A DNA stretch of 64,000 nt from [Archangium] primigenium (GTDB lineage Bacteria > Myxococcota > Myxococcia > Myxococcales > Myxococcaceae), in the NCBI RefSeq assembly GCF_016904885.1, contig NZ_JADWYI010000001.1, positions 7,433,224 to 7,497,223 of the forward strand. The letters are read 5' to 3'. The notes below the pieces were generated by a model. The model was not told the origin of the DNA. It made no database searches and was given only the letters and a program-made list of their open reading frames with translations. A program made the position numbers and the translations under genes. This document shows positions 11,856 through 49,663 of this stretch, one piece after another (positions within the stretch are counted from its first letter, which is position 1; each line of letters starts with the position of its first letter).

Positions 11856-11872
11856 GCTAGACATCCGACCCC

Positions 11873-13421: not shown

Positions 13422-13493
13422 CACCGCCCGGAACGGACGGCGGCGGGCGCCTGGCGCTCCGCCGCCCACCCTGTCCCGGAGGCACCCGCGGGA

Positions 13494-13937: not shown

Positions 13938-13978
13938 GGTGTTGCTCCTTCGCGGTGAGTGCTTCGGGTGTATGAGAA

Positions 13979-14413: not shown

Positions 14414-14445
14414 GGAGGATGTGTACCGCCGATTTCGATTGGACG

Positions 14446-14456
14446 CAATTGAATTG
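14446..14456. promoter_or_regulatory. Candidate OhrR/MarR operator: perfect inverted repeat CAATTgAATTG in the AT-rich divergent promoter region
   Basis: caattgaattg at 14446-14456 inside the 14414-14551 intergenic region between ohrR (-) and the RibD_C gene (+). OhrR operators are AT-rich inverted repeats. Confidence 0.35.
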
Positions 14457-14551
14457 TGAGCAATCAATCCCGCCGTCGATCTGTCGCCAAGGTGGCAGCG
14501 TGGCGCCGGGGCACCCACGTGGCCCCCGCGCGCCCTGCTATCTCCAGGGGA

Positions 14552-25174: not shown

Positions 25175-28100
25175 ATGAGTTCTCCCCTGCACGCCGGCCA
25201 CCGCCTCCCGACCCCCGCATCCGAGGATTCTCCCGCCCAGACCCGGAGAGACCGGGAGCGCCTGGACATGCTCGTCAACCAGGCGAGCGTGGGCATCTCC
25301 CAGCGCTCCCTGGATGGCACCCTGACGCTCGCCAACCAGCGCTTCTGCGACATCGTCGGGCGGCCGCTGGAGGGCGTGCTCGGCCAGACACATGCGTCCT
25401 TCACCCACCCGGAGGATCGGGACTCGAGCGCCGCCCAGTTCCAACGATTGCTGGAGACGGGCGAGGCCTTCACGGTGGAGAAGCGCTACCTGCGGCCGGA
25501 CGGCGCGACGGTGTGGGTCAACAACCACGTCTCGCTCGCCCGGGACGACGCGGGCCGGCCCGAGTTCATCATCTGCGTCACCCACGACATCTCCGACCGC
25601 AAGCGCGCCGAGCAGCGGCTCCAGGAAGGCGATGAGCGGCTGCGCCTGGCGCAGGAAGCGGGCGGCGTGGGCCTCTTCACCTACGAGTTGGCCACCCACC
25701 GCATCCACGTCACGCCGCAGTTCTGCCACCTGTTCGGCCTCGAGCCGGTGGAGTCCCTGCCCATCGCCGACGTGGAGGCGCTCATCCACCCCGAGGATCG
25801 CCACCTCGCCTCCACCGCGGAGATGCGCCTGAGTGGTCAGCTGACCACCGCCGTGGAGTACCGGATCCGCCAGGCGCGGACGGGCGCGGTGCGGTGGATC
25901 TCCCGGCGCGCGGACCTGTTCCGGGACACGAGCGGCAAGCCGCTGCGGTTGATCGGCGTCGTGCAGGACGTCACCGAGCACCGGGCCTCCGAGGACGCGC
26001 TGCGCCAGGCCAACGAGCAGATCCAGCTCGTGCTCAACTCGAGCGCGGTGATTGGCGCCTGGCAGTGGGACGTGCCCAACAACCGCATCACGGGAGACGA
26101 GCGCTTCGCCCAGTCGTTTGGCTTCACGCCCGAGCAGGCGGCCCAGGGCGCACCGCTCAAGGCCTTCGTGGAGTCCATCCATCCCGAGGACCGGGACCGG
26201 ACCGTGGCCCTGATCAGCCGCACCCTGGAGACGGGCGGCCCCTATCGCCATGAGTACCGCGTGCGGCACGCACGGGGCGAGTACCTGTGGGTGGAGGCCA
26301 CCGGGTACTGCGTCGTCGACGCCCAGGGCAAGCCGCTGCGCTTTCCCGGTCTGCTCATCGACATCGACGAGCGCAAGCAGGCGGAGCTGCGCCAGTCCGT
26401 CTTCATGGAGATCTCCGACCGGCTGCGCGACATGACGGACACGGCGGACATCGCCGGCGCCGTCATGCCGCGCGTGGGCAAGCTGTTCCACGCGTTGCGC
26501 GCGGGCTACGGCTCCATCGACTCCCAGCAGGAGCTGGTGAACATGGAGCGCGAGTGGGTGGCCGGGCCCGACGTCTCCAGCGTGGCGGGCATCCACCGCT
26601 TCTCCGACTACGGCGTCTTCATCGAGAACCTCAAGCGGGGCGAGACCATCGCCATCCCGGACATCGAGAAGGATCCGCGCACGGCGCCGGGGGCGGCCAA
26701 CCTGCTCGGCATTGGCATCCGGGCCCTGCTCAACGTGCCCTTGATGGAGCAGGGGCGCTTCGTGGCCGTGCTCTACGTGCACGACGCCCAGGCGCGGCGG
26801 TGGAACGAGGACGAGATCGAGTTCGTGCGCAACGTGGCCGATCGCATCTGGACGGCGAGCGAGCGCATCAAGGCCATGGAGCAGCTGCGGCGCGCCAACG
26901 AGACGCTGGAGCAGCGCGTGGAGGAGCGCACGCGCGAGCGCGATCGGGTCTGGAACGTGAGCCAGGATCTGCTGGTGGTGGCGGACTACGAGGGCCGCTT
27001 CGTCAGCGTCAACCCCGCCTGGAGCGCGATCCTGGGCTGGGAACCGGAGGAGCTGCTGGGCAAGAACTCCCAGTGGCTGGAGCATCCGGAGGACCACGAC
27101 AAGTCCCGGGCGGAGCGCGAGCACCTGTCCGCGGGCGAGCGCACGCAGCAGTTCGAGAACCGGCTGCGGCACAAGGATGGCACCTACCGGCTGTTGTCCT
27201 GGACGGCGGTGGCGGTGCCCGAGCGGCGGCTCGTGTACTCCTCCGCGCGCGACATCACCGAGCAGCGCAAGATCGAGGAGCAGCTGCGCCAGTCCCAGAA
27301 GATGGAGGCGGTGGGCAAGCTCACGGGCGGCGTGGCGCACGACTTCAACAACCTGCTGCAGGTCATCTCCGGCAACCTCCAGCTGTTGCAGCGCGACGTG
27401 GCGGGCAACGAGCGGGGCACGCGCCGGGTGCAGACCGCCATCGGCTCGGTGGAGCGCGGCGCCCGGCTCGCCTCCCAGCTCCTGGCGTTCGCCCGGCGGC
27501 AGCCGCTCGCGCCCGTGGTCATCCACCTGGGCCGACTGGTGCGGGGCATGGACGATCTCCTGCGCCGCTCGCTCGGCGAGGACATCGAGGTGGAGACCGT
27601 CATCAGCGGCGGCCTGTGGAACACCGCCGTGGATCCCAACCAGCTCGAGAACGTCATCCTCAACCTGGCCATCAACGCCCGGGACGCGATGCACAACACC
27701 GGCAAGCTGACGATCGAGGTCAGCAACGCCATGCTGGATGACCGCTACGCGCTGACGAACCCGGAGGTACAGCCCGGCCAGTACGTGCTGCTGGCCGTCT
27801 CCGACACGGGCGGCGGCATGACCCCCGAGGTGATGGAGCGCGCCTTCGAGCCCTTCTTCACCACCAAGGCCGAGGGCCGGGGCACGGGCCTCGGCCTGAG
27901 CATGGTGTACGGCTTCGTCAAGCAGAGCGGCGGCCACGTGAAGATCTACAGCGAGGTCGGCCATGGCACGACGCTGAAGATCTACCTGCCGCGCACGTTC
28001 GACTCCGAGCTGCCCCTGGCGGGCGACGTCGTCACCGGCCCCATCGAGGGCGGCCACGAGACCATCCTGGTGGTGGAGGACGACGCCGAGGTGCGGGGCA

Positions 28101-28861
28101 CGGTGGTGGAGATCCTCACGGAGCTGGGCTACCGCGTGCTCAAGGCGCAAGACGGACAGAGCGCGATGGCCATCCTCCAGAGCGGGCTGCTCGTGGACCT
28201 GCTCTTCACGGACGTGGTCATGCCCGGCCCGGTGCGCAGCCCGGACCTCGCCCGGCAGGCCAAGGCGCTGCTGCCGGACATCGAGGTGCTGTTCACCTCG
28301 GGGTACACGGAGAACGCCATCGTGCACGGCGGCCGGTTGGATCCCGGCGTGCACCTGTTGAGCAAGCCGCACCGCCGCGAGGACCTGGCGCGCAAGCTCC
28401 GGCAACTGCTCGACCAGCGCGCCGCGAAGCTGCGGGGCAAGGCGCCGACGCCGCCCCCCCTCCCCGCGCCGGCGCCCGTGGTGACGCCCAAGCCCGGGCC
28501 CCTGCGGGTGCTGCTCGTGGAGGACGACGAGGACATCCGCATGTCGGCGCTGGAGCTCATGGACCTGCTGGGCCATGAGGTGGTGGCGCTGCCGGACGCC
28601 GAATCGGCCATCCGGGACCTGCCGGGCCAGCGCTTCGACGTGCTGTTCACCGACGTGACCCTGCCCGGCAAGTCCGGCGTGGAGCTGGCGCGCGAGGTGC
28701 GGCAGCGCTACCCGGAGATGAAGATCATCATCGCCTCCGGCCACGGCCGCGCCGTGCTGAGCGCGGAGGACGCGCGGATGCCGAACCTGTGGGTGTTGCC
28801 CAAGCCCTACGCGCTGCCACAAATCCAGGAGGTGCTGCTCCAGGTGGCCCTGGCCTCCTGA
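25175..28861 (+). CDS. Hybrid sensor histidine kinase: multiple PAS/PAC domains + GAF + HisKA + HATPase_c + two receiver domains
   Basis: 1228 aa. Repeated PAS blocks ([55 protein letters not shown]). H-box [13 protein letters not shown]-box GTGLGLSMV. Receiver Asp motifs ILVVEDD...[10 protein letters not shown] and [10 protein letters not shown]...[13 protein letters not shown]. Confidence 0.85.
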
Positions 28862-28937: not shown

Positions 28938-29360
28938 ATGGCCGACAAACTGGTGTTGAGCGATGAGGACTGGAAGAAGCGTCTGACCCCCGAGGAGTAC
29001 CAGGTGCTGCGCCACCATGGGACCGAGCGGCCTGGCAGCGGCTGCTACCTCGGGACGAAGACGCCGGGGACCTACGTCTGCGCGGGGTGCGCCCAGCCGC
29101 TGTTCAAGTCGGGCGAGAAGTTCGACTCCGGCACGGGCTGGCCCTCCTTCACCCAGCCGCTCCAGGCGGACTCGGTGACGGAGTACCGGGACGTGTCCTA
29201 TGGCATGGTGCGCACCGAGGTGCGCTGCGGCCGGTGTGACGGCCACCTGGGCCATGTCTTCCCGGACGGTCCGCCCCCGACGGGCCTGCGCTACTGCATG
29301 AACTCGGTGGCGATGAAGCACGTGCCCGAGGGTCAGGTGCTCCCGCTCGCCACGAAGTGA
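28938..29360 (+). CDS. msrB: Peptide-methionine (R)-S-oxide reductase
   Basis: 140 aa. SelR/MsrB motifs: two CxxC pairs (CAGC...CGRC) and the catalytic RYCMNS. Confidence 0.9.
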
Positions 29361-29374
29361 ACCGGGCGCGGGCC

Positions 29375-30259
29375 TTAGCGGCTCGCGCGCTCGGCCTCGG
29401 CCAGGCGCTTCTTGGTCAGCGACAGGTAGTTGGCGTCCAGGTCGATGCCCACGTAGCGCCGGCCGAGCTTCATGGCCGCCACGCCGGTGGTGCCGCTGCC
29501 GTTGAACGGATCGAGGATGAGGGCGTCCTCGGGGGTGCTCGCCTCGATGACGCGCTCGAGCAGCGACACGGGCTTCTGCGTGGGGTGGCTGCCGTGCGCC
29601 TTCTCCTCGCGGCGCGGCGCCGTCATGGTCCACACCCGGCCGGCCTCGTCCGCCTCCAGCTCCTCCTCACCCGTGCGCGGCAGGGCCCACACGTCGCGCA
29701 TCTGCTTGCCGCCGTTGTCCTGCTTCATCTTCTTGTAATTGAAGGTGTGCTGGAGCTTGGCGGCCGGCTTGGGCGAGGCCCAGATGAGCAGCTCGGAGGA
29801 GTGCGTGAAGTAGCGGCAGGCGAGGTTGGGGCTCGCGTTGGGCTTGTACCAGGTGACGGTGTTGAGCAGCTTGTAGCCGAGCTTCTGCATCGCGAAGCCC
29901 ACCGAGAAGATGACGTGCTGGGTGCCGCTCACCCAGATGCTGCCCGTGGGCTTGAGCACGCGCTGGCACTCCTTGAGCCAGGCGCTGGTGAAGGCATGAT
30001 CCTCCTCCACGCCGCGCGACACGTCCCACTCGCCCTTGTTCACCGCGGCGCGCTTGCCGTTCTTGCAGGTGAAGCCGCCGTTGGACAGGAAGTACGGGGG
30101 ATCGGCGAACACCATGTCGAACGTGCCGGCCTCGAACTGCTTGAGCAGGGCCAGGCTGTCACCCTGGTAGAGCCGGTACGCGTCGCTCTTGGCGAAGAGG
30201 CTCTCACGCAGGGACGGCTGGACAAGCTTCAGGGCAGGGGCTGCGGCTTCGGCGGACAT
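29375..30259 (-). CDS. Beta-class (N6-adenine or N4-cytosine) DNA methyltransferase, apparently orphan
   Basis: 294 aa. Motif IV DPPY (FADPPYFLSNGG) precedes motif I FNGSGTTGVAA, the beta-group order. No restriction endonuclease candidate in the flanking genes. Confidence 0.85.
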   Translation of the reverse strand: MSAEAAAPALKLVQPSLRESLFAKSDAYRLYQGDSLALLKQFEAGTFDMVFADPPYFLSNGGFTCKNGKRAAVNKGEWDVSRGVEEDHAFTSAWLKECQRVLKPTGSIWVSGTQHVIFSVGFAMQKLGYKLLNTVTWYKPNASPNLACRYFTHSSELLIWASPKPAAKLQHTFNYKKMKQDNGGKQMRDVWALPRTGEEELEADEAGRVWTMTAPRREEKAHGSHPTQKPVSLLERVIEASTPEDALILDPFNGSGTTGVAAMKLGRRYVGIDLDANYLSLTKKRLAEAERASR

Positions 30260-30445
30260 CTCTCGCCTCCGTCAGAGGGGGTTCGTCGTGACGGGGGGCA
30301 ATGTGAGGGCAACACGGTGCTACGTCGAATTTCTCGCCTGTACTTTCCTGTAGCACGTGGAAGCACTCGGAAACTTGACGGGCCGCGCGCGCTGGTGCTT
30401 CGGCCTCGGGCGTGTCAGCGCCAAGGCTATGCTCCCGCGCAACGC

Positions 30446-31777
30446 ATGGCCTCTTCGACCCTGACCGTGGAACAAGTGCTCGCGCTCGCGCCGGATGCCT
30501 CGGCGGCGGCCGCGGGCCGGAAACTCGGCGCCGCGAGCCACTGGACGAATCCGGGCCGCGCCGCGCACGCGCTCTGGGGCGAGTGCCGGGGCAGTGCGCT
30601 GTACCAGGTGCGCGTCGACCTGGGAGACCTGTCCTCCAAGTGCTCGTGTCCGAGCCGCAAGTTTCCCTGCAAGCACGCCCTAGGGCTCCTGGTGCTCTTC
30701 GCCGGCGGCCACCTGCCCGAGGCCCCGCCGCCCGAGTGGGTCACCGAATGGCTGGAGCGCCGCGCCGCCTCGAGCGAGCGCAAGGAGAAGCGCAAGGCCA
30801 CGCTCGCCGAGGGCGCGCCCCCCGCCGACCCGCAGGCCCAGAGCCGCCGCGCGTCGGATCGCCAGGAGCGCGTGAGCCGGGGCCTGGAGGCGATGCGGGC
30901 CTGGATGGAGGACCTGGTGCGCATGGGCTTCGCCAGCCTGGAGCCGAACACGGACACGTGGAGCACCCAGGCGGCGCGGCTCGTGGATGCCCAGGCGCCG
31001 GGCATGGCCTCGCGGGTGCGGCGGCTCGCGGAGATTCCGGGCTCGGGTCCCGGCTGGCCCCGGCGCCTGCTGGACGCGCTGGGTCGGCTCGCGCTCGCCG
31101 CCGAGGCCTGGGGACGCCGGGACACGCTGCCCGCGCCGCTCCAGGAGGACCTGCGCACCCTGGTGGGCTTCTCCCTGCGCGAGGAGGAAGTCGAGGCCCG
31201 CGGCGAGCAGGTGCACGACACCTGGACCGTCCTGTCGCACGTGCAGGACGACGAGGAGCGCGTGCGCGTGCAGCGCACCTACTTGATGGGCACCACCACG
31301 GGCCGGATCGCGCTCGTGCTCCAGTTCGCGGCCGGGCGGGCCACCTTCACCGACAGCTTCCTGCCGGGCTCGGCGTTCGACGCGCGCTGCGTGTTCTGGC
31401 CGAGCGCGGTCCCCCGTCGCGCCAAGGTGCTCGAGCGGCGCGGCGAGGTCCACGCCTGGACGGGACCCCTGCCCACCCTGTCGATCGAGGACCTGGGCCA
31501 GCGCTTCGCCCAGGAGCTGTCCCAGAATCCCTTCCAGGACAGCACGCCGGTGCTGCTCGGTCCGGTCACGCCCCTGCGGGACGCGCACGCGCACTGGTGG
31601 CTGCGCGATGCCACGGGCGCGGCGGTGCGCCTGGCCGGAGAGAACCACTGGTCGCTGCTCGCGCTGTCCGGCGGTCAGCCGCTCGAGGTGTTCGGCGACT
31701 GGGACGGCGAGCGCCTGTGGCCCCTGGGCGCGCGCGTGGGGCAGCTCCTCCACCCCCTCCAGGGAGTCATGTCATGA
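30446..31777 (+). CDS. SWIM zinc-finger domain protein (first gene of the five-gene cluster)
   Basis: Start ATG 30446 (MASSTLTVEQVL). SWIM motif CSCPSRKFPCKH (CxCx6CxH). Long alpha-helical C-terminal region. The stop overlaps the next start as ATGA. Confidence 0.75.
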   Translation: MASSTLTVEQVLALAPDASAAAAGRKLGAASHWTNPGRAAHALWGECRGSALYQVRVDLGDLSSKCSCPSRKFPCKHALGLLVLFAGGHLPEAPPPEWVTEWLERRAASSERKEKRKATLAEGAPPADPQAQSRRASDRQERVSRGLEAMRAWMEDLVRMGFASLEPNTDTWSTQAARLVDAQAPGMASRVRRLAEIPGSGPGWPRRLLDALGRLALAAEAWGRRDTLPAPLQEDLRTLVGFSLREEEVEARGEQVHDTWTVLSHVQDDEERVRVQRTYLMGTTTGRIALVLQFAAGRATFTDSFLPGSAFDARCVFWPSAVPRRAKVLERRGEVHAWTGPLPTLSIEDLGQRFAQELSQNPFQDSTPVLLGPVTPLRDAHAHWWLRDATGAAVRLAGENHWSLLALSGGQPLEVFGDWDGERLWPLGARVGQLLHPLQGVMS

Positions 31778-33261
31778 GCGACGCCGACGTGCTGACCCAC
31801 CTCGCCTCGTTGGGCACCTCCCGCGCGCCCCAGGCCGATCCGCTCGACGGTCCGGAGGCCGCGGCGTTCCGCGCCCTCGAGGGCCAGTCGCTGGAGAAGC
31901 GGCTCCTGCTCGCCGCGGGCGTGCGCGCCATCACCCGGGCCGCGGGACAGCTCGCCGCCCGGCCCGAGGCCACCGAGCCGCCCGTGCCGCCGGAGACCCT
32001 GGAGGTCTGCCCGCCCCGCGTGAGCGCCCTGCTCCGGGAGTTGCTCGGAGGGGGCGACCCCGAGCGCGACGAGCTCCTGGCCGAGGTCTTCAAGCGCCTG
32101 GCCCGGGCCCGGCGCAGGCTGCCCCCGGAGTTGCTCGTCAGTGCCCTGAACCGGAGCAAGGGTCCCCTGCGCGCGAGCCTGGAGCCCGTGCTCGGGGAGC
32201 GGGGCCGCTGGCTCTCGCGCCTCGGTCCAGCGTGGCGGCCCTCCACGCCCTTGGAGGTCACCGAGGCCGAGCGTGTCTGGGCCGAGGGCACCTTCGACGC
32301 GCGACGCACGGCCCTGGAGGACATGCGACGGCTGGACCCGGCGCGCGCCCGCCAGTGGGTGATGGACACGTGGACGCAGGAGAAGGCCGAGCACCGGGCG
32401 CGCTTCCTCGCCTGTTTCGATCCGACCCTGTCGCCCGAGGACGAGCCCGCGCTGGAGCTGGGTCGGCAGGATCATCGCGCGCCCACGGTGCGTGAGGTGG
32501 CGCGCCACCTGCTCGCGCGGCTGCCCGGCTCGGCCTTCGCGCTGCGCATGCGCGAGCGGGCCCGGACCGTGCTGCTCTGGAATGGCACCACGCTGAGTGT
32601 GCGGCTGCCCGCCGCCTGGGATGCGGAGGCCGAGAAGGATGGCCTCGACAAGCCGCCCTCGGGCGTGGGCCAGAGCGAGCACTGGCTCACCCGGCTCCTG
32701 GAGTGTGTCCCGCTGCCGGAATGGGAGCGCGTCTTCCAGGCCCCGCCCCAGCGCATCGCCACCGAGGCCGCCCAGACGGACGACTTCGCCGCCCTCTCCG
32801 AGGGCTGGGCCCACGCCTTCCGGTTGGAGCCCTCGCTCGCGTGGGCCTCGGCGCTCCTGGACGTGTGGTCGGCGCAGCCCGCCCATCGGCTCACCGCCAC
32901 CCGCGCCCAGTCCCTGGCGCTCACCGTCTTCGAGCAACTGCCCGCCAGCGAGCGCACCGCGCACAGCCTGCGCCTGCTGCGCGGCACCGCCACCCTGCCC
33001 TGGCGGGAGCAGGCCCTGGCGCTGACCCCCGCGCCCTGGCCCCGGGAGCTGGGCATGGCGTGGCTCAACGCGCTGTACGACAACCCCAACACCGTGGGTC
33101 CGCTCTGGCGGGCCGTCCGGGCCCTGCCGCCCGAGTGTCTCCTCGCCGCGGCCAATGCTCCGCCCCCGCCGCTGCGGCTGTCCGCCTACCGTTCCGTCTT
33201 CGAGCGCTTCCAGCGGCTCGTCACCCTCTTTCGCATCCTCCACGAGGAGTTGAACCCGTGA
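31774..33261 (+). CDS. Helical-repeat protein of unknown function (DUF5691-like by architecture, name recalled not searched)
   Basis: 496 aa, Leu/Ala/Arg-rich alpha-helical repeats. ATG 31774 overlaps the SWIM stop (ATGA). GTG of the next gene overlaps its stop (GTGA). Confidence 0.55.
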   Translation: MSDADVLTHLASLGTSRAPQADPLDGPEAAAFRALEGQSLEKRLLLAAGVRAITRAAGQLAARPEATEPPVPPETLEVCPPRVSALLRELLGGGDPERDELLAEVFKRLARARRRLPPELLVSALNRSKGPLRASLEPVLGERGRWLSRLGPAWRPSTPLEVTEAERVWAEGTFDARRTALEDMRRLDPARARQWVMDTWTQEKAEHRARFLACFDPTLSPEDEPALELGRQDHRAPTVREVARHLLARLPGSAFALRMRERARTVLLWNGTTLSVRLPAAWDAEAEKDGLDKPPSGVGQSEHWLTRLLECVPLPEWERVFQAPPQRIATEAAQTDDFAALSEGWAHAFRLEPSLAWASALLDVWSAQPAHRLTATRAQSLALTVFEQLPASERTAHSLRLLRGTATLPWREQALALTPAPWPRELGMAWLNALYDNPNTVGPLWRAVRALPPECLLAAANAPPPPLRLSAYRSVFERFQRLVTLFRILHEELNP

Positions 33262-34343
33262 TCGCCTCCCCCGTTCTCCGCCAGCACGCCGAACACCAGT
33301 ACGCCGAGGAACTGGCCGCGCTCGCCCGGGTCGACGATCGGCCCCGGCCCCCGGGCTGGAAGCTGTCCCCGTGGGCCGTGCGCCTGTACCTGCTCGGAGG
33401 CACGCTCGCGGATGGCACCCCGGTGAGCGCCAAGTACATCGGCAACGCGCGGCTGGTGGAGATCGCCGTGGCCACGCTCGCCACCGACCGCGCCCTGCTG
33501 CTCTACGGCGTGCCGGGCACCGCCAAGTCCTGGCTGAGCGAGCACCTGGCGGCCGCCATCAGCGGGGACTCGACGCTGCTCGTGCAGGGGACGGCCGGCA
33601 CGGACGAGGCGGTGCTGCGCTATGGCTGGAACTACGCGCGGCTGCTCGCCGAGGGCCCCTCGGAGGGCGCCCTGGTGCCGAGCCCCGTGATGCGCGCCAT
33701 GCGCGAGGGCAAGCTCGCGCGCATCGAGGAGCTCACGCGCATGCCGAGCGAGGTGCAGGACGCGCTCATCACGCTCTTGAGCGAGAAGACGCTGCCCGTG
33801 CCGGAGCTGTCCAGCGAGGTGCAGGCCCGCGCGGGCTTCAACGTCATCGCCACGGCGAACAACCGGGACCGGGGCGTCAACGAGCTGTCGAGCGCGCTCT
33901 TGCGCCGCTTCAACACCGTGGTGCTGCCCACGCCCGACTCGCTGGAGCAGGAGGTGCGGATCGTCGAGAAGCGCGTGGCCGAGATGGGTCAGGCGCTCGC
34001 CCTGCCCGCGGAGAAGCCCGCCCTGGAGGAGATCCGCCGCGTGGTGACGCTGTTCCGCGAGCTGCGCGGGGGCGCCACGCTGGACGGGACGATGAAGCTC
34101 AAGACGCCCTCGGGCTCGCTGTCCACCGCCGAGGTCATCTCGGTGATGAACGGCGGGCTGGCCATGGCGGGCTACTACGGCGACGGCGTGCTGCGGGCGC
34201 CGGACCTGGCCGCGGGCCTCACCGGCGCCATCGTGAAGGATCCCGTGCAGGACCGGGTCGTGTGGCTCGAGTACCTCAAGACGGTGGTCAAGGAGCGCGA
34301 GGGGTGGAAGGACCTCTACCGCGCCTGCATGGAGGTGTTGTGA
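33258..34343 (+). CDS. MoxR-family AAA+ ATPase
   Basis: GTG start at 33258. Walker A GVPGTAKS, Walker B / sensor region KLARIEELTRMPSEVQDALITLLSEK. Typical MoxR length (~360 aa). Confidence 0.8.
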   Translation: MIASPVLRQHAEHQYAEELAALARVDDRPRPPGWKLSPWAVRLYLLGGTLADGTPVSAKYIGNARLVEIAVATLATDRALLLYGVPGTAKSWLSEHLAAAISGDSTLLVQGTAGTDEAVLRYGWNYARLLAEGPSEGALVPSPVMRAMREGKLARIEELTRMPSEVQDALITLLSEKTLPVPELSSEVQARAGFNVIATANNRDRGVNELSSALLRRFNTVVLPTPDSLEQEVRIVEKRVAEMGQALALPAEKPALEEIRRVVTLFRELRGGATLDGTMKLKTPSGSLSTAEVISVMNGGLAMAGYYGDGVLRAPDLAAGLTGAIVKDPVQDRVVWLEYLKTVVKEREGWKDLYRACMEVL

Positions 34344-36601
34344 GCGGTGGCGCGAGCACGGCGTCGGACGCCACGGTGCACGTGCTCGGGGTGCGGCACC
34401 ATGGCCCGGGCAGCGCGCGGGGCGTGCGGGCCGCGCTCGAGCAGCTCCAGCCGGACGTGGTGCTCATCGAGGGCCCCCCCGAGGCCGATGGCCTGCTCGC
34501 CCTCGCGGCCCACGCGGAGATGAAGCCGCCGGTGGCCCTGCTCGTCTACGCGGTGGAGGCGCCCGCGCGCGCCGTCTTCTACCCGTTCGCCGTCTTCTCG
34601 CCCGAGTGGCAGGCCCTCCAGTACGCGGTGGCGCGCGCCCTGCCCGTGCGCTTCATCGACCTGCCGCAGACGCACCAGCTCCTGCCCCCGGAGGAACTCG
34701 ACCCCGCGCCGGAGCCGACGGAGCCGGAGGACTCCCCTCGGAGGGATCCCCTCGGCGCGCTCGCGCGGGCGGCGGGGCACACGGACGGCGAGCGCTGGTG
34801 GGAGCACCTCATCGAGCAGCGCCAGGACGTGACGGGCGTCTTCGAGGCGGTGCTCGAGGCCATGAGCGCCCTGCGCGAGAACGAGTCGGCGCTGCCCGCC
34901 CGCGAGGCCCTGCGCGAGGCGTACATGCGCCGCTGCATCCGTCAGGCGAAGAAGGACGGCCACCAGCGGATCGCCGTCGTGTGTGGGGCCTGGCATGGAC
35001 CGGCGCTCGCCACGCCCCGGCCCGCGCGCGAGGACGATGCCCTGCTCAAGGGCCTGCCCAAGGCGAAGGTGGCCGCCACGTGGGTGCCCTGGACGTATGA
35101 CCGGCTGGGCTGGCGCAGCGGGTATGGCGCGGGCGTGGACTCTCCGGGCTGGTACGCGCACCTGTGGCTCACGCCCGAGCGGCCGGTGTCGACGTGGGCG
35201 GCGCGCATCGCCCACCTCCTGCGGGACGCGGGCATGGACGCCTCCTCCGCGAGTGTCATCGAGACGGTGCGACTTGCCGAGGCGCTGGCGGCGCTGCGCG
35301 AGCGCCACGTGGTGGGCCTGGACGAGCTGCGGGACGCGGCGCTCAGCGTGTTGTGCGAGGGAGACCCCACGCCGCTGCGGCTCATCCACGACAAGCTGGA
35401 GGTGGGCACGGGGCTGGGCGAGGTGCCCGCGGACGTGCCCTCCGTGCCGCTCGCGCGAGACCTCGCGGCCTGGCAGAAGACGCTGCGCCTGCCGCCCTCC
35501 GCGGAGAGCAAGCTCCTGGAGCTGGACCTGCGCAAGGCGCTGGACCGCGACCGCAGCCGGCTGCTCCACCGGCTGACCCTGCTCGACATCCCCTGGGGGG
35601 TGCTGGAGGAGAGCCAGAAGAAGACGACCGGCACGTTCCCCGAGACCTGGCGCATGCAATGGCAGCCCGTGCTGGCCGTGAACGTGGTCGAGGCCAGCCT
35701 GTTCGGCAACACGGTGGAGCTGGCGGCCGTGGGCCGGGTGGTGGCGCGCGCCGGCGAGGCCACGGAGCTCGGCACGCTCACCGACCTGCTCCTGGGCTCC
35801 CTGCCCGCGGAGCTGCCGCCCACGGCCATCGACACCGTGCTCCAGCACCTGCAAGCGCTCTCCAGTCGCTCGACGGACATCCTGGCGCTGATCGATGCCT
35901 ATCCCCAGCTCGCCAAGAGCCTCCGCCAGGGCACCGTCCGCGAGACGCCCACCGGGCCCATCCTCGCCATCGCCCATGGCCTCTTCGAGCGCATCATCAT
36001 CGGCCTGCCGGGCGCCTGTGTGTCGTTGGACGACGAGGCCGCGCTCCAGCGCCGCCAGCACCTGCGCACCATGCAGGAGGCCGTGAGACTGCTCGCGGAC
36101 AAGGAACGGGAGGCGGAATGGGCCCAGGCCCTGGAGGGGCTCGTGCATCGCGACGCCGTCCATGGGCTCGTGCGCGGCGCGGCGGTGCGACTGCGCCTGG
36201 AGCTGGGACGGGGACAGGACGCGGAGCTGGCCACCCTGGCCCAGCGCGCCCTCTCCCCGTCGGTCGCACCCAAGGACGCGGCGGCCTGGCTGGAGGGCCT
36301 CATCTCCGGCGATGCGCTGCTGCTGCTGCACCAGACCGGCCTGTGGGAGGCGCTCGACGGGTGGCTCCAGGGCCTGGCCCGGGAGTCCTTCGTCGAGCAG
36401 TTGCCGCTGATGCGGCGGGCCTTCTCCGGCTTCAAGGCGGCCGAGCGGCGCGACATGGCCGATCGGGTGCGGGACTTCTCGCCGTCCTCCACGGCCCGGC
36501 GGGAGGGCACCCCGCGGGAGACGCTGGATCCGAAGCGCGTGGCCCAGGTGTTGCCGGTGCTGTCCTCGTTGTTGGGAGTGAGGCTCGATGAAATCTCCTG
36601 A
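34340..36601 (+). CDS. Large (753 aa) protein of unknown function, DUF5682-like (name recalled not searched), conserved MoxR/vWA partner
   Basis: GTG 34340 overlaps the MoxR stop (GTGA). GC3-consistent frame. Mixed alpha/beta N-terminal half (HVLGVRHHGPGSARGVRAALE, VVCGAWHGPAL) and helical C-terminal half. The 1076-aa track ORF is an upstream frame extension. Confidence 0.55.
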   Translation: MSGGASTASDATVHVLGVRHHGPGSARGVRAALEQLQPDVVLIEGPPEADGLLALAAHAEMKPPVALLVYAVEAPARAVFYPFAVFSPEWQALQYAVARALPVRFIDLPQTHQLLPPEELDPAPEPTEPEDSPRRDPLGALARAAGHTDGERWWEHLIEQRQDVTGVFEAVLEAMSALRENESALPAREALREAYMRRCIRQAKKDGHQRIAVVCGAWHGPALATPRPAREDDALLKGLPKAKVAATWVPWTYDRLGWRSGYGAGVDSPGWYAHLWLTPERPVSTWAARIAHLLRDAGMDASSASVIETVRLAEALAALRERHVVGLDELRDAALSVLCEGDPTPLRLIHDKLEVGTGLGEVPADVPSVPLARDLAAWQKTLRLPPSAESKLLELDLRKALDRDRSRLLHRLTLLDIPWGVLEESQKKTTGTFPETWRMQWQPVLAVNVVEASLFGNTVELAAVGRVVARAGEATELGTLTDLLLGSLPAELPPTAIDTVLQHLQALSSRSTDILALIDAYPQLAKSLRQGTVRETPTGPILAIAHGLFERIIIGLPGACVSLDDEAALQRRQHLRTMQEAVRLLADKEREAEWAQALEGLVHRDAVHGLVRGAAVRLRLELGRGQDAELATLAQRALSPSVAPKDAAAWLEGLISGDALLLLHQTGLWEALDGWLQGLARESFVEQLPLMRRAFSGFKAAERRDMADRVRDFSPSSTARREGTPRETLDPKRVAQVLPVLSSLLGVRLDEIS

Positions 36602-37739
36602 AGAAGAGCGGCGGGAGCGCTGGCGGCTCGTGCTCGGAGAGCCCGCGCAGGAGCCCCTGGGCGTGCGGTTGGGAGACAACGAGCGGCGCATGGATCGCAC
36701 GCTCGAGGCGCTGTACGACGCCGAGCCCAAGGCGGGCCGCGAGGCCAGCATGCCCCACGTCTCGCGCTGGCTCGGGGACATCCGCGAGTACTTCCCCACA
36801 CCCGTCGTGCGCGTCATGCAGGGAGACGCGATCGCGCGGCTGGGGCTGCTCAAGATGCTGCAACAGCCGGAGGTCCTCGAGACCCTGGAGCCGGACGTGG
36901 AGCTGGTGGCCACGCTCTTGTCGTTCAGCCGGACCCTGCCCCAGAAGACGAAGGAGACGGCGCGTCGGGTGGTGCGCAAGGTGGTGGACGACCTGGAGCG
37001 GCGGCTGCGCGCGCCCACCGAGCGGGCCGTGCGGGGCGCCCTGTCCCGGGCCTCGCGCACGCGCCGTCCCCGCACGGCGGAGATCGACTGGGACCGGACG
37101 CTGCGCGCCAACCTGGGCAACTACCTGCCCGAGCGCAAATCCGTGGTGGTGGACACGCTCGTAGGCCATGGGCGCAAGCGCTCGAGCCTGCGCGACGTGG
37201 TGCTCTGCATCGACCAGAGTGGCTCCATGGCGACCTCGGTCGTCTACTCGAGCATCTTCGGCGCGGTGCTCGCCTCCCTGCGGGCGGTGACCACGCGCAT
37301 GGTCGTCTTCGACACGGCGGTGGCGGACCTGAGCGAGCACCTGTCGGATCCCGTGGAGCTGCTCTTCGGCACGCAGTTGGGCGGCGGCACGGACATCGCC
37401 AAGGCGCTCGCCTACTGTCAGCAAGTCATCACCCGACCGGCCCAGACCATCCTCGTGCTCATCACGGATCTCTTCGAGGGAGGCGACGCCCAGCGGATGC
37501 TCCAGCACGCCGCGTCGCTCGTGCACGGGGGCGTGACGGTCATCTGCCTCCTGGCGCTCAATGATCAAGGGACGCCCTCGCACGACCCCCAGCACGCCGC
37601 GCGGTTCGCGGCGCTCGGCATCCCCACCTTCGCCTGCACGCCGGACCTGTTCCCGGAGCTCATGGCGGCGGCGCTCCAGCGCCAGGATCTGACGGCCTGG
37701 GCCGCGCGGCGGGAGATTCAAGTGGCCCGCCCTGGATGA
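36588..37739 (+). CDS. von Willebrand factor A (vWA) domain protein with intact MIDAS
   Basis: ATG 36588 (GGGAGTGAGG ribosome-binding site) overlaps the previous gene by 14 nt. MIDAS DQSGSM...T(VVFDTAV)...D(ITDLFEGGD). CoxE-like vWA architecture. Confidence 0.8.
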
Positions 37740-37754
37740 GACAGGAGAGGGGGA

Positions 37755-37780
37755 GGCGGTTAGAGTCCGCCCGCTTTTCG
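37755..37780 (+). terminator. Candidate intrinsic terminator after the vWA gene
   Basis: GGCGG-ttagagt-CCGCC hairpin followed by the T-rich gcttttcgttcg. Confidence 0.35.
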
Positions 37781-37813
37781 TTCGTCCCCCTTTCATCCGA
37801 GGAAGACTCCCGC

Positions 37814-38314
37814 ATGAGCCAAGTGAAACTCTCGACGTCCAAGGGCGACATCGTCCTGGAGCTGGACTCCGCCAAGGCCCCGAAGACGGTCGCCAACTTC
37901 CTGGAGTACGTGAAGGCCGGTCACTACGACGGCACCATCTTCCACCGCGTCATCCCCCACTTCATGATCCAGGGCGGCGGCTTCGCGCCGGGCATGAAGC
38001 AGAAGCCCACCCGCGAGACCATCGAGAACGAGGCCGCCAACGGCCTGAAGAACGACACGTACACGGTGGCCATGGCGCGCACGTCCGCGCCCCACTCGGC
38101 CTCGGCGCAGTTCTTCATCAACGTGGCCGACAACGTCTTCCTCAACCACACCGCGCCCACGCAGCAAGGCTTCGGCTACGCCGTCTTCGGCAAGGTGGTG
38201 AAGGGCCAGGACGTCGTGGATCAGATCAAGGGCGTCCAGACGGGCAACAGCGGCATGCACCAGAACGTGCCGACCGAGGACGTGGTGATCACCAAGGCGG
38301 AAGTGATCGCCTAG
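37814..38314 (+). CDS. ppiB: Peptidyl-prolyl cis-trans isomerase, cyclophilin type
   Basis: 166 aa. Cyclophilin motifs [43 protein letters not shown]. Confidence 0.9.
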
Positions 38315-42109: not shown

Positions 42110-43165
42110 TCAGCGCCCCACGGCCAGGGATTCGCCGCGCACCAGGCGCATCAGCGTGCCCGCCACGTCGTCGCCATGGACGAGGTGGTCCACCGCCTTG
42201 CGCCCCACCGCGGCGCCCGGCATGCCGAACACCACGCACGACTCCTCGTTCTGCGCGAGCGTCAGGCCCCCGCCCTGCTTGATGGCGAGCAGGCCCTCCG
42301 CGCCATCCTCGCCCATGCCGGTGAGGATGAGCCCGAGGGCGCGCCGCCCGTAGGCCTTGGCCGCGCTCTCCAGCAGCACCGTGCCCGAGGGCATGTGCCC
42401 GTCGCGCTCCACGCCCGGCTTGAGCGCCACGCGGCCCCGGAACGGAATGGCCATGTGCTGGCCGGGCGGCGCGATGAGCACGTTGCCGGGCAGGAGCTGC
42501 TCGCCATCCTGCGCCAGCCGCACCTTGAGCTTCGAGGAGTTGGCGAGCCAGCCCGCGAGCGACTCGGCGAAGGCGGCGTTGATGTGCTGCACGATGACGA
42601 TGGGCGTGGGGAAGTCCGCGGGCAGCTCGGACAACATCCGGAAGAGCACCTGCGGGCCGCCCGTGGAGCTGGCCACCGCCAGCACGCCATAGGGCATGCC
42701 CACGGGCGCGGGCGTGGTGCCCCCACCGGGCAGGGGCGGCCGACGCTTGCTGTGGATGTGGCGGATGACGCGCACCGAGGACAAGAGCTTCACCTCGCGC
42801 GACAGGTTCCACGCCTCCAGCCCCGCGTCGATGGACGGCTTGATCTGCAGCGCCAGGGCGCCGATCTCCAGCGCCCGGCACGTGAGCTCTGGCGCCTGCT
42901 GCCGCGGGTCCGCCGTGAGCATCAGGATGGGCGTGGGGACCTCGGCCATGATGTGCTCGACGGCCGTCAGCCCGTCCATCACGGGCATCTCCACGTCCAT
43001 GGTGATGACCTGGGGCCGGAGCTCTCGCGCCGCGTCGAGGGCTTCCTTGCCGTTGGTGCAAGTGCCGACCACTTCCAGATCCGGATCCCGGCTCAGTGCT
43101 TCACAGATCAGCTGTCGGCAGATGTGCGAGTCGTCGACGACCAGCACCGACACTTTCTTGCCCAT
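42110..43165 (-). CDS. cheB: Chemotaxis response regulator protein-glutamate methylesterase
   Basis: Receiver VLVVDDS...[12 protein letters not shown]. Methylesterase catalytic region VASSTGGPQ / HINA / FGMPGAAV. Confidence 0.9.
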
Positions 43166-43234: not shown

Positions 43235-45682
43235 TCAACCCAGGAGCCGCCGCACCACGTCGACCAGGTCTTGACGCACCAGGTCACCCTTGGTGATGTA
43301 GCCATCCGCCCCGGCGGCCAGCCCTCGCCGCCGGTCATCCTCCCCGCCCCGGGTGGTGAGGATGACGACGGGGAGGACCTTGTGGGTGGGGTGCGCCTTG
43401 AGCCGGCGCGTCAGCTCCAGGCCGTCCGCCCGGGGCATCTCCAGGTCGGTGCACACCAGGTCCACCTGCGTATTGACGAGCAGATCCAGGGCCTCCAGGC
43501 CGTCGGTGGCCATGACGACGTCGTAGCCCACCGCCTCCAGCAGCGCGCCGATGAGCTCGCGCGTGAGGGGGGAGTCGTCCACCACGAGGATGCGGCGGCG
43601 GGGGGGCGGCGCGGGACGGGGCGTGACGGCCGAGGCCCGGCTGCCCCGGAAGCCCGACAGGCCCCGGGCGTTCGCGATGAGGTGCGCGGCGGACAGCACC
43701 ATGGACAGCCGGCCATCCGCGAGCGTGGTGGCCCCCGTGAGGTGGGGGAAGTGCCCGAGCAGGCCCTTGAGGGGGAGGATGGCCTGGACGCTCTCCTCCA
43801 GCACCCGGTCCACCGCCAGGGCGGCCATGGAGCCCTGGCTGCGCACGACGAGCACGAGCGCCCCCTCCCCGGCCTCCTGCTCCGGGCTCAGGCCCAGGAG
43901 GGCGCCCAGCGAGGCGAAGGGCATGGGCTGCTCGTCCACCTCCAGCACCCCGCGCCCGGCCACCTCCTTGATCTGCGAGGACTCCACCCGGAGCGCGCGC
44001 GACACATGGGCCGCGCTCAGGCACAGGGTCTCCTCGGCCACCTTCACGAAGAGCAGCGGGGCCACGGTGAGCGACACCGGAACCCGCAGCTCGAAGCGCG
44101 TGCCCTGGTTGCCATGGGACGCCACCACCACGTCGCCGCCCAGCGCCCGGAGCGAGCTGCGCACGGCGTCCAGGCCCACGCCCCGGCCGGAGATGTCCGT
44201 GGCCACCTCGCGCGAGGTGAAGCCGGACAGGAAGATGAGCTCGCGCGCCGCTTGATCCGTCAGGCCCGAGGCGGCGGCCTCATCCAGGAAGCCCTTGCGC
44301 ACCGCGGCGCGGCGCAGCACCGAGGGCTCCAGGCCCACGCCGTCGTCCTCCACCCGCAGGACCAGCCGGTTGCCATCCCGCGCGGCGCTCAAGGTCAGCC
44401 GGCCCCGCGGGTGCTTGCCCGCGGCCACCCGGTCCACGCGCGACTCCAGCCCGTGATCGAGCGCGTTGCGCACCAGGTGCAGCAGCGAGTCGCGCAGCGC
44501 CTCCACCACCGCCCGGTCCGCGCGGGTGTCCTCGCCGTCCACCACCAGCTCCACTTCCTTGCCCAGCTCGCGCGCCAGGTCCCGCACCATGCGCGGGTAG
44601 GGCTCGAAGAGCACGGACAGCGGCAACATGCGCAGGCGCTGCACCTCGTCGGCCACGTAGCCCAGGTCGCGCAGCTCCTCGTTGGCCAGCAGCTTCTCCT
44701 CGCGGTGCAGGCCGGCCGCCAGCTCCTTGGCGCGCCCCAGCCGCTCGGCCAGCAGCATCGCCGCCGGGCCCAGGTCCTCCGCGGCGCGCGCGAGCAGGCT
44801 CAGCTCCCGCGCCAGGTCCAGACGCCGGGTGGTGGCCAGCTCCCGGCGACGCGACACCTGGGTGAGGTTGGTCACCGCGCTGGTGAGCCGGTCCAGACTC
44901 GCCACGCCGATGCGCACCGAGCCATCCGCGCGATCCGCCGTGCGGACCGCGGCCGTCACGGGCGAGGGCCGGGGCGGCTCGGGCACCGCGGGCGGCATGC
45001 GGGCGATGGAGGTGGCGACCGTGACGGAGGCCGGAGGCGCCGCGCGCGGCGGCTCCAGGCTCGAGGCCCGTCCCGGCGGCGGGGGGCGCGTCGAGGACGA
45101 GGCCGGGGCGATGGCGGGAGGCACCGGCGGCGCCGAGCGGGACACGAGCGAGGGCGACGCCGCGCTCAGGGACACCGAGCCCCAGGCGGGGGTGGTCTCC
45201 TCGGCCGAATCCTCCACGGACTCGCGGCGCGCGATGGGCGGACCCGCGCGCGGGGTCGCCACGGGCGGCGGCGGCGCGGCGGCGCCCAGGCCGGTGATCT
45301 CCGCCCGGGTGCACTCCTGGAGTCCGCGCACCAGCTTGCCCACCTCGGGGGGAGACTGGACGGGCTCCTGCCCCGCGGCGCCGGACAACACCAGCACGGC
45401 GTCCGCCGCCCGGAGCAGCGCGTCGATGGAGTCCGCGGACAGCGCATGCTCGGCGCGCTCGGTGGAGCGCACCAGTTCCTCCATCTCGTGGACGACGGTG
45501 TTGATGGTGTCGAACCCCATCATCCGCGCCTCGCCCTTGAGGCCGTGCAGCTCGCGCAGCACCGTGCGGCCCGCGTCGGGACTGGCGCCCGCCTCCAGCT
45601 CCACGATGCGACGGTTGATGCGCTCCAGGCGCACCCCCACCAGTTCCCGGAACTGCTTGAGCAGCTTCTCCCGCCCGCTCAC
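43235..45682 (-). CDS. cheA: Chemotaxis histidine kinase CheA with fused C-terminal receiver (CheA-REC hybrid)
   Basis: GTG start overlapping the MCP stop (GTGA). Hpt LRELHGLKGEARMMGF. HATPase LLHLVRNALDHG / GRGVGLD. CheW-like domain. Receiver ILVVDDSPLTREL...VCTDLEMPRADG. Confidence 0.9.
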   Translation of the reverse strand: MSGREKLLKQFRELVGVRLERINRRIVELEAGASPDAGRTVLRELHGLKGEARMMGFDTINTVVHEMEELVRSTERAEHALSADSIDALLRAADAVLVLSGAAGQEPVQSPPEVGKLVRGLQECTRAEITGLGAAAPPPPVATPRAGPPIARRESVEDSAEETTPAWGSVSLSAASPSLVSRSAPPVPPAIAPASSSTRPPPPGRASSLEPPRAAPPASVTVATSIARMPPAVPEPPRPSPVTAAVRTADRADGSVRIGVASLDRLTSAVTNLTQVSRRRELATTRRLDLARELSLLARAAEDLGPAAMLLAERLGRAKELAAGLHREEKLLANEELRDLGYVADEVQRLRMLPLSVLFEPYPRMVRDLARELGKEVELVVDGEDTRADRAVVEALRDSLLHLVRNALDHGLESRVDRVAAGKHPRGRLTLSAARDGNRLVLRVEDDGVGLEPSVLRRAAVRKGFLDEAAASGLTDQAARELIFLSGFTSREVATDISGRGVGLDAVRSSLRALGGDVVVASHGNQGTRFELRVPVSLTVAPLLFVKVAEETLCLSAAHVSRALRVESSQIKEVAGRGVLEVDEQPMPFASLGALLGLSPEQEAGEGALVLVVRSQGSMAALAVDRVLEESVQAILPLKGLLGHFPHLTGATTLADGRLSMVLSAAHLIANARGLSGFRGSRASAVTPRPAPPPRRRILVVDDSPLTRELIGALLEAVGYDVVMATDGLEALDLLVNTQVDLVCTDLEMPRADGLELTRRLKAHPTHKVLPVVILTTRGGEDDRRRGLAAGADGYITKGDLVRQDLVDVVRRLLG

Positions 45683-49295: not shown

Positions 49296-49663
49296 GCGAC
49301 CTCCCGCGACGAGGGCGCCAAGAAGCGCCCGAATTCCACCAACGACATGACGGGCCAGAGCGCGCCGCGCACCTGGATGAAGCCCTTGAGGCTGCACCCG
49401 GCCAGCCGCGCGAGCACCACCGGCGCGGGCAGCAGCGCGCGCGGCTCGGCATCGATCTCCAGGGTGTCCACGCCCACGCCCTCCCCCGAGATCGCCACGA
49501 GGATGCGGCCGGTGACGGACGCCTCGCGGAAGGCGTGGCTGGCCGAGCCCGCCAGCCCACCGAACGTGGAGGGAGACTCGATGGTGGCCACCTCCTGCGC
49601 GACGAAGGCGACCCGATTGTCGCCCGCGCGGCACAAGAGCGTGCCCGAGAGCCGGCCGCTCAT
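49292..49663 (-). CDS. CheW-like coupling protein (second, divergent paralogue)
   Basis: 123 aa, CheW-domain-sized. Lies between cheW and the first MCP. Weaker conservation than the cheW-1 gene. Confidence 0.65.
   Translation of the reverse strand: MSGRLSGTLLCRAGDNRVAFVAQEVATIESPSTFGGLAGSASHAFREASVTGRILVAISGEGVGVDTLEIDAEPRALLPAPVVLARLAGCSLKGFIQVRGALWPVMSLVEFGRFLAPSSREVA

Follow-up and report, generated by a model that had tools for sequence, protein, structure and literature searches.

What is the function of an operon in which a MoxR-type ATPase and a von Willebrand factor A (vWA) protein are encoded together with a SWIM zinc-finger protein and members of the families DUF5691 and DUF5682? 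This question is raised by a stretch of 64,000 nucleotides from [Archangium] primigenium (assembly GCF_016904885.1, contig NZ_JADWYI010000001.1, positions 7,433,224 to 7,497,223 of the forward strand), here called the window, in which five genes occupy positions 30446-37739 of the + strand. All positions below are those of the window, unless another locus is named. We think that the operon encodes a soluble cytoplasmic MoxR-vWA remodeller of the YehL class, which would gate a TIKI-like hydrolase contained in the DUF5682 protein, with the SWIM/OB and HEAT-like proteins serving as receptor for the client. We give this reading a probability of roughly 0.4.

The five open reading frames (ORFs), at 30446-31777, 31774-33261, 33258-34343, 34340-36601 and 36588-37739, are each uninterrupted on translation. 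They are linked by start/stop overlaps, ATGA at 31774-31777, GTGA at 33258-33261 and again at 34340-34343, and by a 14-nt overlap at 36588-36601, exactly where a first-pass annotation of the stretch, made from its letters, had placed them. In Pfam the products hit, in gene order, SWIM (PF04434, 3.5e-7), DUF5691 (5e-100, full length), AAA_5 (1.4e-37), DUF5682 (PF18934, 9.5e-255, full length) and VWA_CoxE (PF05762, 4.9e-48). The gene starts are backed by NCBI-derived homologues of equal length, one 100% identical at 753 amino acids (aa) (P0001) and one of 443 aa (P0214). The three signatures singled out at first sight are present in the translations and in the homologue alignments alike: the SWIM motif CxCx6CxH, the Walker A sequence GVPGTAKS and the metal-ion-dependent adhesion site (MIDAS) DQSGS...T...D are kept in 32-69 homologues. 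Since none of the five products has a hydrophobic segment, all of them are predicted to be soluble. The window has ~70% G+C, and this composition is unbroken at the cluster.

The same arrangement is found well beyond the myxobacteria. One genome per species was scanned with the DUF5682 protein, which gave 351 relatives, and the best 80 loci were analysed by tblastn with the window proteins. Of these 80, 63 have enough flank, and in 52 of them the SWIM, DUF5691, MoxR, DUF5682 and vWA genes are colinear on the same strand; these loci are distributed over at least nine phyla (Myxococcota, Chloroflexota, Planctomycetota, Gemmatimonadota, Cyanobacteria, Pseudomonadota, Deinococcales, Acidobacteriota and Verrucomicrobia), so the neighbourhood that the first-pass annotation had pointed to is real, and its genes stay together from phylum to phylum. 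On a Rhizobium etli plasmid the five genes are found in identical order, overlapping and with the same annotations. The estimated gaps between genes have medians of -19, -4, -1 and +18 nt, at or below zero at three of the four junctions; the overlaps from which stoichiometric co-translation had been deduced are conserved across phyla, but the deduction itself, drawn from overlaps, was overstated. The median identity to the window across loci is 76% for MoxR, 61% for vWA, 48% for DUF5682, 42% for SWIM and 33% for DUF5691, which is the fastest-evolving component. Apart from shadow ORFs, histidine kinases and ABC ATPases, nothing conserved came up in the flanks when the ORFs of the 80 loci were clustered all against all, in agreement with the earlier view of a self-contained cluster. 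The closest relatives belong to myxobacteria, Ktedonobacteria, planctomycetes and cyanobacteria; the best 80 loci are rich in lineages of multicellular habit, in a ranking biased by the myxobacterial query, and Escherichia coli, Rhizobium, Fusobacterium and Hymenobacter are also carriers. The window cluster typifies a class that is catalogued but uncharacterised.

The counterpart in E. coli K-12 is yehL-yehM-yehP-yehQ, in which genes for an AAA_5 MoxR, a DUF5682 and a VWA_CoxE protein follow one another in the same order and overlap, with a SWIM protein also encoded in the operon. The window shares with this class a YehL-type ATPase with intact motifs, a DUF5682 gene directly downstream, a CoxE-type vWA gene with MIDAS next to it, and a SWIM protein. 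Identity between window and E. coli proteins amounts to 43% for YehL, 32% for YehM and 34% for YehP, and YehM matches PF18934 at 2.4e-98. The E. coli cluster differs in that its SWIM gene comes last, is longer (614 aa) and has similarity to the window SWIM protein only at the zinc finger, and in that DUF5691 is replaced by DUF4132 proteins (YehI, MolR) and a WGR fragment upstream. No homology was detected between DUF5691 and YehI/DUF4132 or YehQ, nor between the window SWIM protein and YehQ beyond the zinc finger. The genes upstream of yehL are yehF (WGR), the molR/yehH pseudogene and yehI (DUF4132); yehF is the WGR-domain 5' part of molR, which is disrupted in K-12 and intact in strain MS20653, where both DUF4132 genes are intact. 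In Agrobacterium vitis the DUF4132 gene lies inside the cluster, in the order AAA-DUF5682-DUF4132-VWA-SWIM. There are, then, two architectures around one core: type A has SWIM and DUF5691 in front, type B has DUF4132 and a different SWIM protein behind, and the core trio MoxR-DUF5682-vWA is invariant, E. coli and Agrobacterium included. YehL is one of the seven recognised subfamilies of MoxR (PMC3893208). The literature searched on DUF5682, DUF5691, yehLMPQ, MoxR with SWIM and vWA, and MoxR with TraB or Tiki yielded no functional study, as the first-pass annotation had supposed.

The proposal of a hydrolase is centred on gene 4 (34340-36601), which encodes the YehM homologue of 753 aa, matching an Archangium primigenium protein at 100% identity and belonging to a family with 4268 representatives at 50% identity (E <= 1e-3). 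Its AlphaFold2 model has a predicted local distance difference test score of 87.1. An N-terminal alpha/beta domain (aa ~10-296, 34367-35227) is followed by a helical bundle (aa ~300-385, 35237-35494), likened here to the AAA+ lid of Mg-chelatase and MoxR ATPases, AAA_lid_2 giving recurring weak matches in DUF5682, and by a C-terminal alpha-solenoid (aa ~444-745, 35669-36574) with a conserved RRxF...ERR segment at 36413-36451. This protein had at first been taken to be devoid of catalytic motifs; its N-terminal domain in fact contains a strictly invariant His/Glu set. In an alignment of 152 sequences, consisting of 150 representatives at most 50% identical to one another, YehM and the window protein, the invariant residues are R19, H20, E44, S87-P88-E89, D107, E159, R192-E193, G216 and H219. 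H20 is present in 147/147 sequences and H21 in 146/147; E44, E89 and H219 are found in 152/152 and C215 in 148/152. The candidate active-site motifs are GVRHHG (34388-34405), LIEGPP (34463-34480), SPEW (34598-34609) and CGAWH (34982-34996), and in the model strands 12-18, 40-43 and 210-216 have conserved residues at their C-terminal ends.

This arrangement is reminiscent of the TIKI/TraB/PrgY/GumN/ChaN/erythromycin-esterase superfamily (Tiki, RRSP, EreB), which hydrolyses esters or peptides with a set of two His and two Glu at strand ends (PMC6254334). DUF5682 probably has a like alpha/beta fold with a parallel sheet; it has the succession His...Glu...(Glu)...His at strand ends, and the motif G-x-x-H twice plus Glu, GVRHHG and CGAWH being the two stretches that resemble the G-x-x-H motifs; the likeness was spotted ahead of any TraB match in Pfam. 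That match, to TraB_PrgY_gumN, is a single sub-threshold one (E 0.065) among 12 DUF5682 fragments, with none in 10 further sequences. Other profile links were negative as well: hhalign against E. coli YbaP, whose relatives from metagenomes were too alike to give a useful profile, returned a probability of 0.2%, and phmmer and profile searches of DUF5682 against the PDB gave no match. Foldseek returned 7w5z_E, a Tetrahymena complex IV chain of nearly equal length, with a probability of 0.97 but an E-value of 0.11. DUF5682 differs from the superfamily in having no Pfam match above threshold and in being fused to a lid-like bundle and a solenoid within a MoxR-vWA operon, a context for which the literature searched describes no TIKI superfamily example. 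Because confirmation at the profile level failed, we call the modelled N-terminal domain TIKI/TraB-like, after its apparent likeness of fold to TIKI/TraB proteins, and not a proven member of the superfamily. From its conserved residues, DUF5682 probably has an active site, that of a protease-like hydrolase. Unusually long DUF5682 proteins contain no informative domain fusions, only expanded inserts.

The motor and the adaptor are easier to recognise. Gene 3 (33258-34343) encodes a MoxR-family AAA+ ATPase of the YehL subfamily, with 361 aa, whose nearest solved relatives are the Midasin AAA modules (1e-17) and NorQ (4e-6). Its Walker A motif GVPGTAKS (aa 84-91, 33507-33530) is conserved in 66 homologues including YehL. 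The Walker B region, ARIEELTR at 33717-33740, had been described as being of MoxR type; it is conserved family-wide as R-x-E-E-L-T-R, but Glu-Glu replaces the Asp-Glu. The sensor-1 motif IATANN (33846-33863) and the arginine-finger region LLRRF (33897-33911) complete the ATPase. Gene 5 (36588-37739) encodes a CoxE-type vWA protein of 383 aa, with an N-terminal helical region (aa 1-190, containing RWRLVLG at 36618-36638) followed by the vWA domain. The MIDAS comprises DQSGS (DxSGS) at 37212-37226, conserved in 69 homologues including YehP, the Thr in GGGTD at 37380-37394 and the Asp in ITDLFEGG at 37461-37484, and the motifs of both ATPase and MIDAS read as intact in the translations. No C-terminal effector is fused to the vWA domain: the protein ends ~27 residues past it, and the homologues are uniform in length with a single Pfam domain. 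In yehP (11968-13104 of the E. coli K-12 locus L001), a +1 ribosomal frameshift site just past the MIDAS motif GGGT is reported to lead to a product shorter by 75 aa (PMC2790909); the corresponding region of the window is ~37380-37420.

The accessory proteins are less conserved. Gene 1 (30446-31777) encodes a protein of 443 aa in which the SWIM finger sits in a small beta domain (aa ~30-90), followed by a helical bundle (aa 97-252) and two OB-like beta-barrels (aa 254-437). The finger itself, CSCPSRKFPCKH (aa 66-77, 30641-30676), has the zinc-binding signature CxCxnCxH in the form CxCx6CxH, and C66, C68, C75 and H77 are invariant in alignment A4. The N-terminus of this protein is ZSWIM8-like, and its C-terminal end consists of the two OB-like barrels. 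Gene 2 (31774-33261) encodes 495 aa, one fewer than first counted; its DUF5691 product had been described as a helical repeat, and weak HEAT or HEAT_2 matches in 8-9 of 42 members identify it, at the level of profiles, as HEAT-like. Sequence searches link none of the SWIM, DUF5691, DUF5682 and vWA proteins to a solved structure. The resemblance to eukaryotic ZSWIM8, a substrate receptor of Cullin-RING ligases, and to Rea1/Midasin is limited to single domains, and components of cullin, ubiquitin-like or ribosome-assembly type are missing from the cluster. In Archangium minus, Vitiosangium and an Archangium metagenome-assembled genome (L003, L005 and L006), ~800 bp separate the SWIM gene (~6616) from DUF5691 (~7423); a ~235-aa ORF in this gap is common to L003 and L005, and the insertion is present neither in the window nor in other loci.

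How might these parts work together? In MoxR-vWA pairs the MIDAS captures a peptide or an acidic residue of the partner, and the ATPase ring remodels that partner (PMC7159879, PMC3893208). The MoxR hexamer and the CoxE-type adaptor of the window would operate as other such pairs do, the MIDAS gripping an acidic residue of the partner while ATP hydrolysis alters its conformation. We infer that this partner is DUF5682, because it is always encoded between motor and adaptor; its lid-like bundle and solenoid would dock both of them, and E702 in the RRxF...ERR segment is a candidate for the acidic residue. The TIKI-like domain would then be a hydrolase, most likely a site-specific peptidase and possibly a metal-dependent one, which the motor would switch on or load with substrate. 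The SWIM/OB protein and the HEAT-like DUF5691 would form a receptor module by which a protein, or a protein bound to nucleic acid, is chosen as client, and which would be interchangeable with DUF4132 and another SWIM protein in clusters of the E. coli and Agrobacterium type.

Of 5426 complete E. coli genomes, 5353 have yehLMPQ, at a median of one copy and on the chromosome. The ratio of nonsynonymous to synonymous substitution rates (dN/dS) between K-12 and MS20653, a single pair of strains, is 0.02 for yehL, 0.06 for yehP, 0.10 for yehQ, 0.13 for yehM and 0.19 for yehI. Since these values lie between 0.02 and 0.19, they indicate that the yeh genes are under purifying selection. A swarming phenotype has been reported for yehP in the literature.

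Several observations weigh against a remodeller that gates a hydrolase. The invariant residues of DUF5682 could bind a metal or a cofactor rather than be hydrolytic. The receptor module is not always at hand, as 11 of the 63 loci lack at least one of the five genes and several of them show DUF5682 alone, or with MoxR and vWA, with no SWIM or DUF5691 gene in the analysed stretch; the genes neighbouring the loci that lack SWIM and DUF5691 are unrelated, and the missing partners are probably elsewhere in the genome or absent. In E. coli, the block from yehI to yehQ (4280-14945 of the K-12 locus L001, compared with L165) has a synonymous divergence (dS) of 0.14-0.25, which is 2-4 fold higher than the 0.05-0.09 of its flanks (yehR-mlrA). 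The yehM gene is annotated as frameshifted in MS20653, the block is sometimes pseudogenised, and according to the literature H-NS is bound at yehL/yehM and the block is dispensable in the reduced strain DGF-298. H-NS binding, dispensability, pseudogenisation and raised synonymous divergence also fit an accessory or conflict locus.

If the invariant residues do bind a metal, metallocentre-maturation systems may serve as models. In CoxD-CoxE-CoxF, NorQ-NorD, CbbQ-CbbO and the chelatases BchI-BchD-BchH and CobS-CobT-CobN, as in the window, an AAA+ motor is combined with a vWA adaptor that bears a MIDAS and with a third protein on which they act. In such a chelatase-like machine DUF5682 would be the large subunit, its His/Glu/Cys site would bind the metal or cofactor, as in ChaN-type members of the TIKI superfamily, to which ChaN belongs, and MoxR-vWA would drive insertion into a target enzyme. 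The CoxE type of the vWA protein, the position of NorQ and Midasin as nearest solved ATPases, the BchI-type lid-like bundle of DUF5682 and a plausible metal site formed by the invariant H20, H21, C215 (148/152), H219, E44 and E89 are all consistent with this idea; moreover, the E. coli neighbour molR was at first reported to be required for the use of molybdate (cited in PMC8533742). The link between molR and molybdate is, however, old and indirect, and the flanks of the 80 loci contain no co-conserved gene for a target enzyme or for cofactor biosynthesis. Pfam and NCBIfam detect neither a BchH/CobN-like protein nor a D/T-type subunit in which an AAA-like domain is fused to vWA, and the chelatase and GvpN models of NCBIfam score far under their cut-offs (18 bits vs 779 for the cobaltochelatase model). 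In contrast with the Cox, Nor, Cbb and chelatase systems, the window has no carbon monoxide dehydrogenase, nitric oxide reductase, Rubisco or tetrapyrrole genes nearby, its third protein is TIKI/TraB-like, and it has extra SWIM and HEAT-like partners; these SWIM/OB and HEAT-like partners are without counterpart in known chelatases. We think that a chelatase-like function is unlikely.

A similarly low likelihood can be assigned to a role in biological conflict. The first-pass annotation had considered a DNA-directed or defence-type role, taking as a hint the DNA methyltransferase encoded divergently from the cluster. In an NTP-dependent (nucleoside triphosphate-dependent) system against phages or plasmids, the SWIM/OB protein would sense invading nucleic acid or protein, MoxR-vWA would set a threshold, and the TIKI-like domain of DUF5682 would be an effector protease that arrests or kills the cell. 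A precedent is given by the ternary systems of Kaur et al. 2020, four described conflict systems (of the VMAP, iSTAND, FtsH and beta-propeller types) built on MoxR-vWA cores (PMC7159879); they resemble the window in combining MoxR and a vWA co-chaperone with further dedicated components, in the CoxE-like N-terminal helical region of the vWA protein, and perhaps in their bias to large-genome, often multicellular bacteria. The closest relatives of the window cluster come from myxobacteria, Ktedonobacteria, planctomycetes and cyanobacteria, in which such systems abound, its putative sensor parts evolve fastest (median identity of 42% for SWIM and 33% for DUF5691 vs 76% for MoxR), TIKI-family toxins such as RRSP act as effectors, and the E. 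coli block, besides being H-NS silenced and raised in synonymous divergence, has in yehQ and yehI its most divergent genes.

Against this stands the fact that none of the four defining third components (VMAP, iSTAND, FtsH or beta-propeller) occurs in the cluster, whose architecture is uniform, with no variable effector at the C-terminus of vWA; in Pfam, bpMoxR scores 24.7 vs a cut-off of 27, and nSTAND6 gives an E-value of 0.0074, both below threshold. SWIM, YehL and TraB go unmentioned in the paper by Kaur et al. (PMC7159879). PADLOC-DB 2.0 produced zero matches for four of the proteins, and for the ATPase only similarities at the level of the P-loop to IetA and mad8 (E 5e-4 to 1e-2). A match was found in 1 of 50,697 phage records, an unannotated faecal contig, and in 43 of 72,556 plasmid records, many of which are megaplasmids or mislabelled chromosomes and 32 of which are predicted to be non-mobilizable. 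Defence islands are patchy, whereas yehLMPQ is near-universal and single-copy in E. coli, with dN/dS well below 1, and no defence genes recur in the flanks.

The methyltransferase gives no help to the idea of defence either. This N6/N4 DNA methyltransferase (29375-30259, - strand) has CcrM as its best solved relative (E 2.7e-52) and adjoins the cluster only in two Cystobacter fuscus loci among the 80, so it was rejected as a functional partner. It is 93-95% identical in C. fuscus, vs 70% for the hybrid kinase and 53% for SWIM, which suggests a housekeeping orphan methylase of the Archangiaceae, a restriction gene having been sought only among the immediate ORFs. Because the genes are near-universal in E. 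coli and under purifying selection, MoxR keeps 76% identity across phyla, PADLOC gives no match, carriage by phages and plasmids is scarce, the architecture is uniform and hydrophobic segments are missing, we judge that the client is cellular (related to stress, damage or assembly) rather than viral.

A further rival reading is surveillance of DNA damage or of nucleic acids. The SWIM/OB protein (type A), or WGR-DUF4132 with SWIM (type B), would recognise damaged DNA or a stalled nucleoprotein, and the MoxR-vWA-DUF5682 core would remove or cleave it. WGR and DUF4132 genes are located immediately upstream of yehLMPQ, DUF4132 is embedded in the Agrobacterium cluster, and molR belongs to the LexA regulon and WGR/DUF4132 genes to the DdrO regulon of D. 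radiodurans (PMC8533742). In addition, a LexA-box-like sequence with one mismatch in the core site, CTGGATAAAATTACAG (450-465 of the K-12 locus), is found 10 nt upstream of yehF, but the count of LexA-like sites in that locus is no higher than chance, and no canonical 20-mer LexA box is located upstream of yehL. The OB-like barrels of the SWIM protein point in the same direction, although OB folds bind proteins and sugars too. Type A is without a WGR domain, the window promoter region has no LexA-type box matching the myxobacterial consensus used, and no repair genes recur in the flanks. A surveillance function of the whole class is, in our opinion, distinctly improbable, and the possible link with DNA damage concerns type B alone.

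That the five genes are mere neighbours with unrelated functions, packed together in a compact high-GC genome, might be suggested by the frequency of four-base start/stop overlaps in genomes of high GC content and by the cyclophilin ORF, which has a like ATGA overlap with gene 5 yet is not co-conserved. This idea is effectively refuted by co-conservation: the five families keep their order and strand in 52 of 63 loci of at least nine phyla, recur on a Rhizobium plasmid and are found, in permuted form, in E. coli.

Coming back to the remodeller that gates a TIKI-like hydrolase, it could have a broader meaning, which we put forward tentatively and rate as rather doubtful. The YehL class would be a previously unrecognised AAA+-regulated hydrolase, in which MoxR-vWA gates a TIKI-family protease within DUF5682 while the client is selected by a SWIM/OB receptor together with its HEAT-like or DUF4132 partner. 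Bacteria would then have a new way of processing chosen proteins, and it might be connected with DNA damage or with the surveillance of nucleoproteins. If the hydrolase reading is true, a new class would be added to the few bacterial ATP-gated machines for proteolysis or processing. The family concerned is large and multi-phylum, is present in nearly every E. coli genome under strong purifying selection, and has been functionally unassigned since the YehL subfamily was defined. The existence of the cluster is unsurprising to a specialist, and the window holds an ordinary member of the family, a clean example with nothing unique of its own. What is new here is the HEAT-like character of DUF5691 and the lid-like bundle and solenoid of DUF5682, together with the candidate active site of DUF5682, the domain parse of the SWIM protein and the description of two interchangeable accessory modules (DUF5691 or DUF4132). 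The last three make this set of DUF proteins testable; in particular, the candidate active site makes the function directly testable.

The two ends of the operon can be placed tentatively. The promoter is presumed, from position only, to be in the stretch that separates gene 1 from the divergent gene of the CcrM-like methyltransferase (30260-30445, read on the + strand), where no sigma-70-like site was found. A terminator-like hairpin with a T-rich tail (37755-37771, +), 16 nt past the stop of gene 5, is the probable operon end; the region does not have more such sites than shuffled sequence, so its position alone is suggestive. An ORF for a cyclophilin-type peptidyl-prolyl isomerase (37736-38314, +) overlaps the gene 5 stop by ATGA. 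The Pfam domain starts only at residue 30 of this ORF, and a Met inside it at 37814, past the hairpin at 37755-37771, is probably the true start. With that likely internal start, with the terminator-like hairpin before it and with its absence beside the cluster in all 80 related loci, it was rejected as a sixth coupled gene.

In C. fuscus and several Ktedonobacteria the vWA gene is closely followed, on its own strand, by one for a two-nucleotide-binding-domain ABC ATPase, too few independent cases for an association. The coordinates of the ABC ATPase gene are 13271-14974 in L009, 14187-15614 in L012, ~13950-15600 in L014-L016 and 15653-17332 in L024; the copy in L012 is ABC-F-like and also contains ABC_tran_Xtn.

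The neighbours of the cluster in the window are a hybrid histidine kinase, the CcrM-like methyltransferase, the cyclophilin and che genes. The kinase (25175-28861, +) has 1228 aa, with multiple PAS domains, one GAF domain, HisKA/HATPase and a pair of receiver domains; C. fuscus alone shares its synteny with the cluster. A small ORF of 140 aa between it and the methyltransferase (28938-29360, +) occupies the same position in both C. fuscus loci (L009 and L013). On the other side, a Pfam scan of the long ORFs on both strands of 38.8-43.2 kb gave no match; the chemotaxis-type genes, both on the - strand, encode a CheB methylesterase at 42110-43165 and, at 43235-45682, a CheA-like kinase that combines Hpt, HATPase, CheW and receiver domains. 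Further downstream, the identical 17-mer CAACAAGCGCGTGCAGC occurs twice, at 46224-46240 and 48032-48048 (-), 1.8 kb apart, and may mark an internal repeat of the long minus-strand ORF 45679-49560 in which both copies are located.

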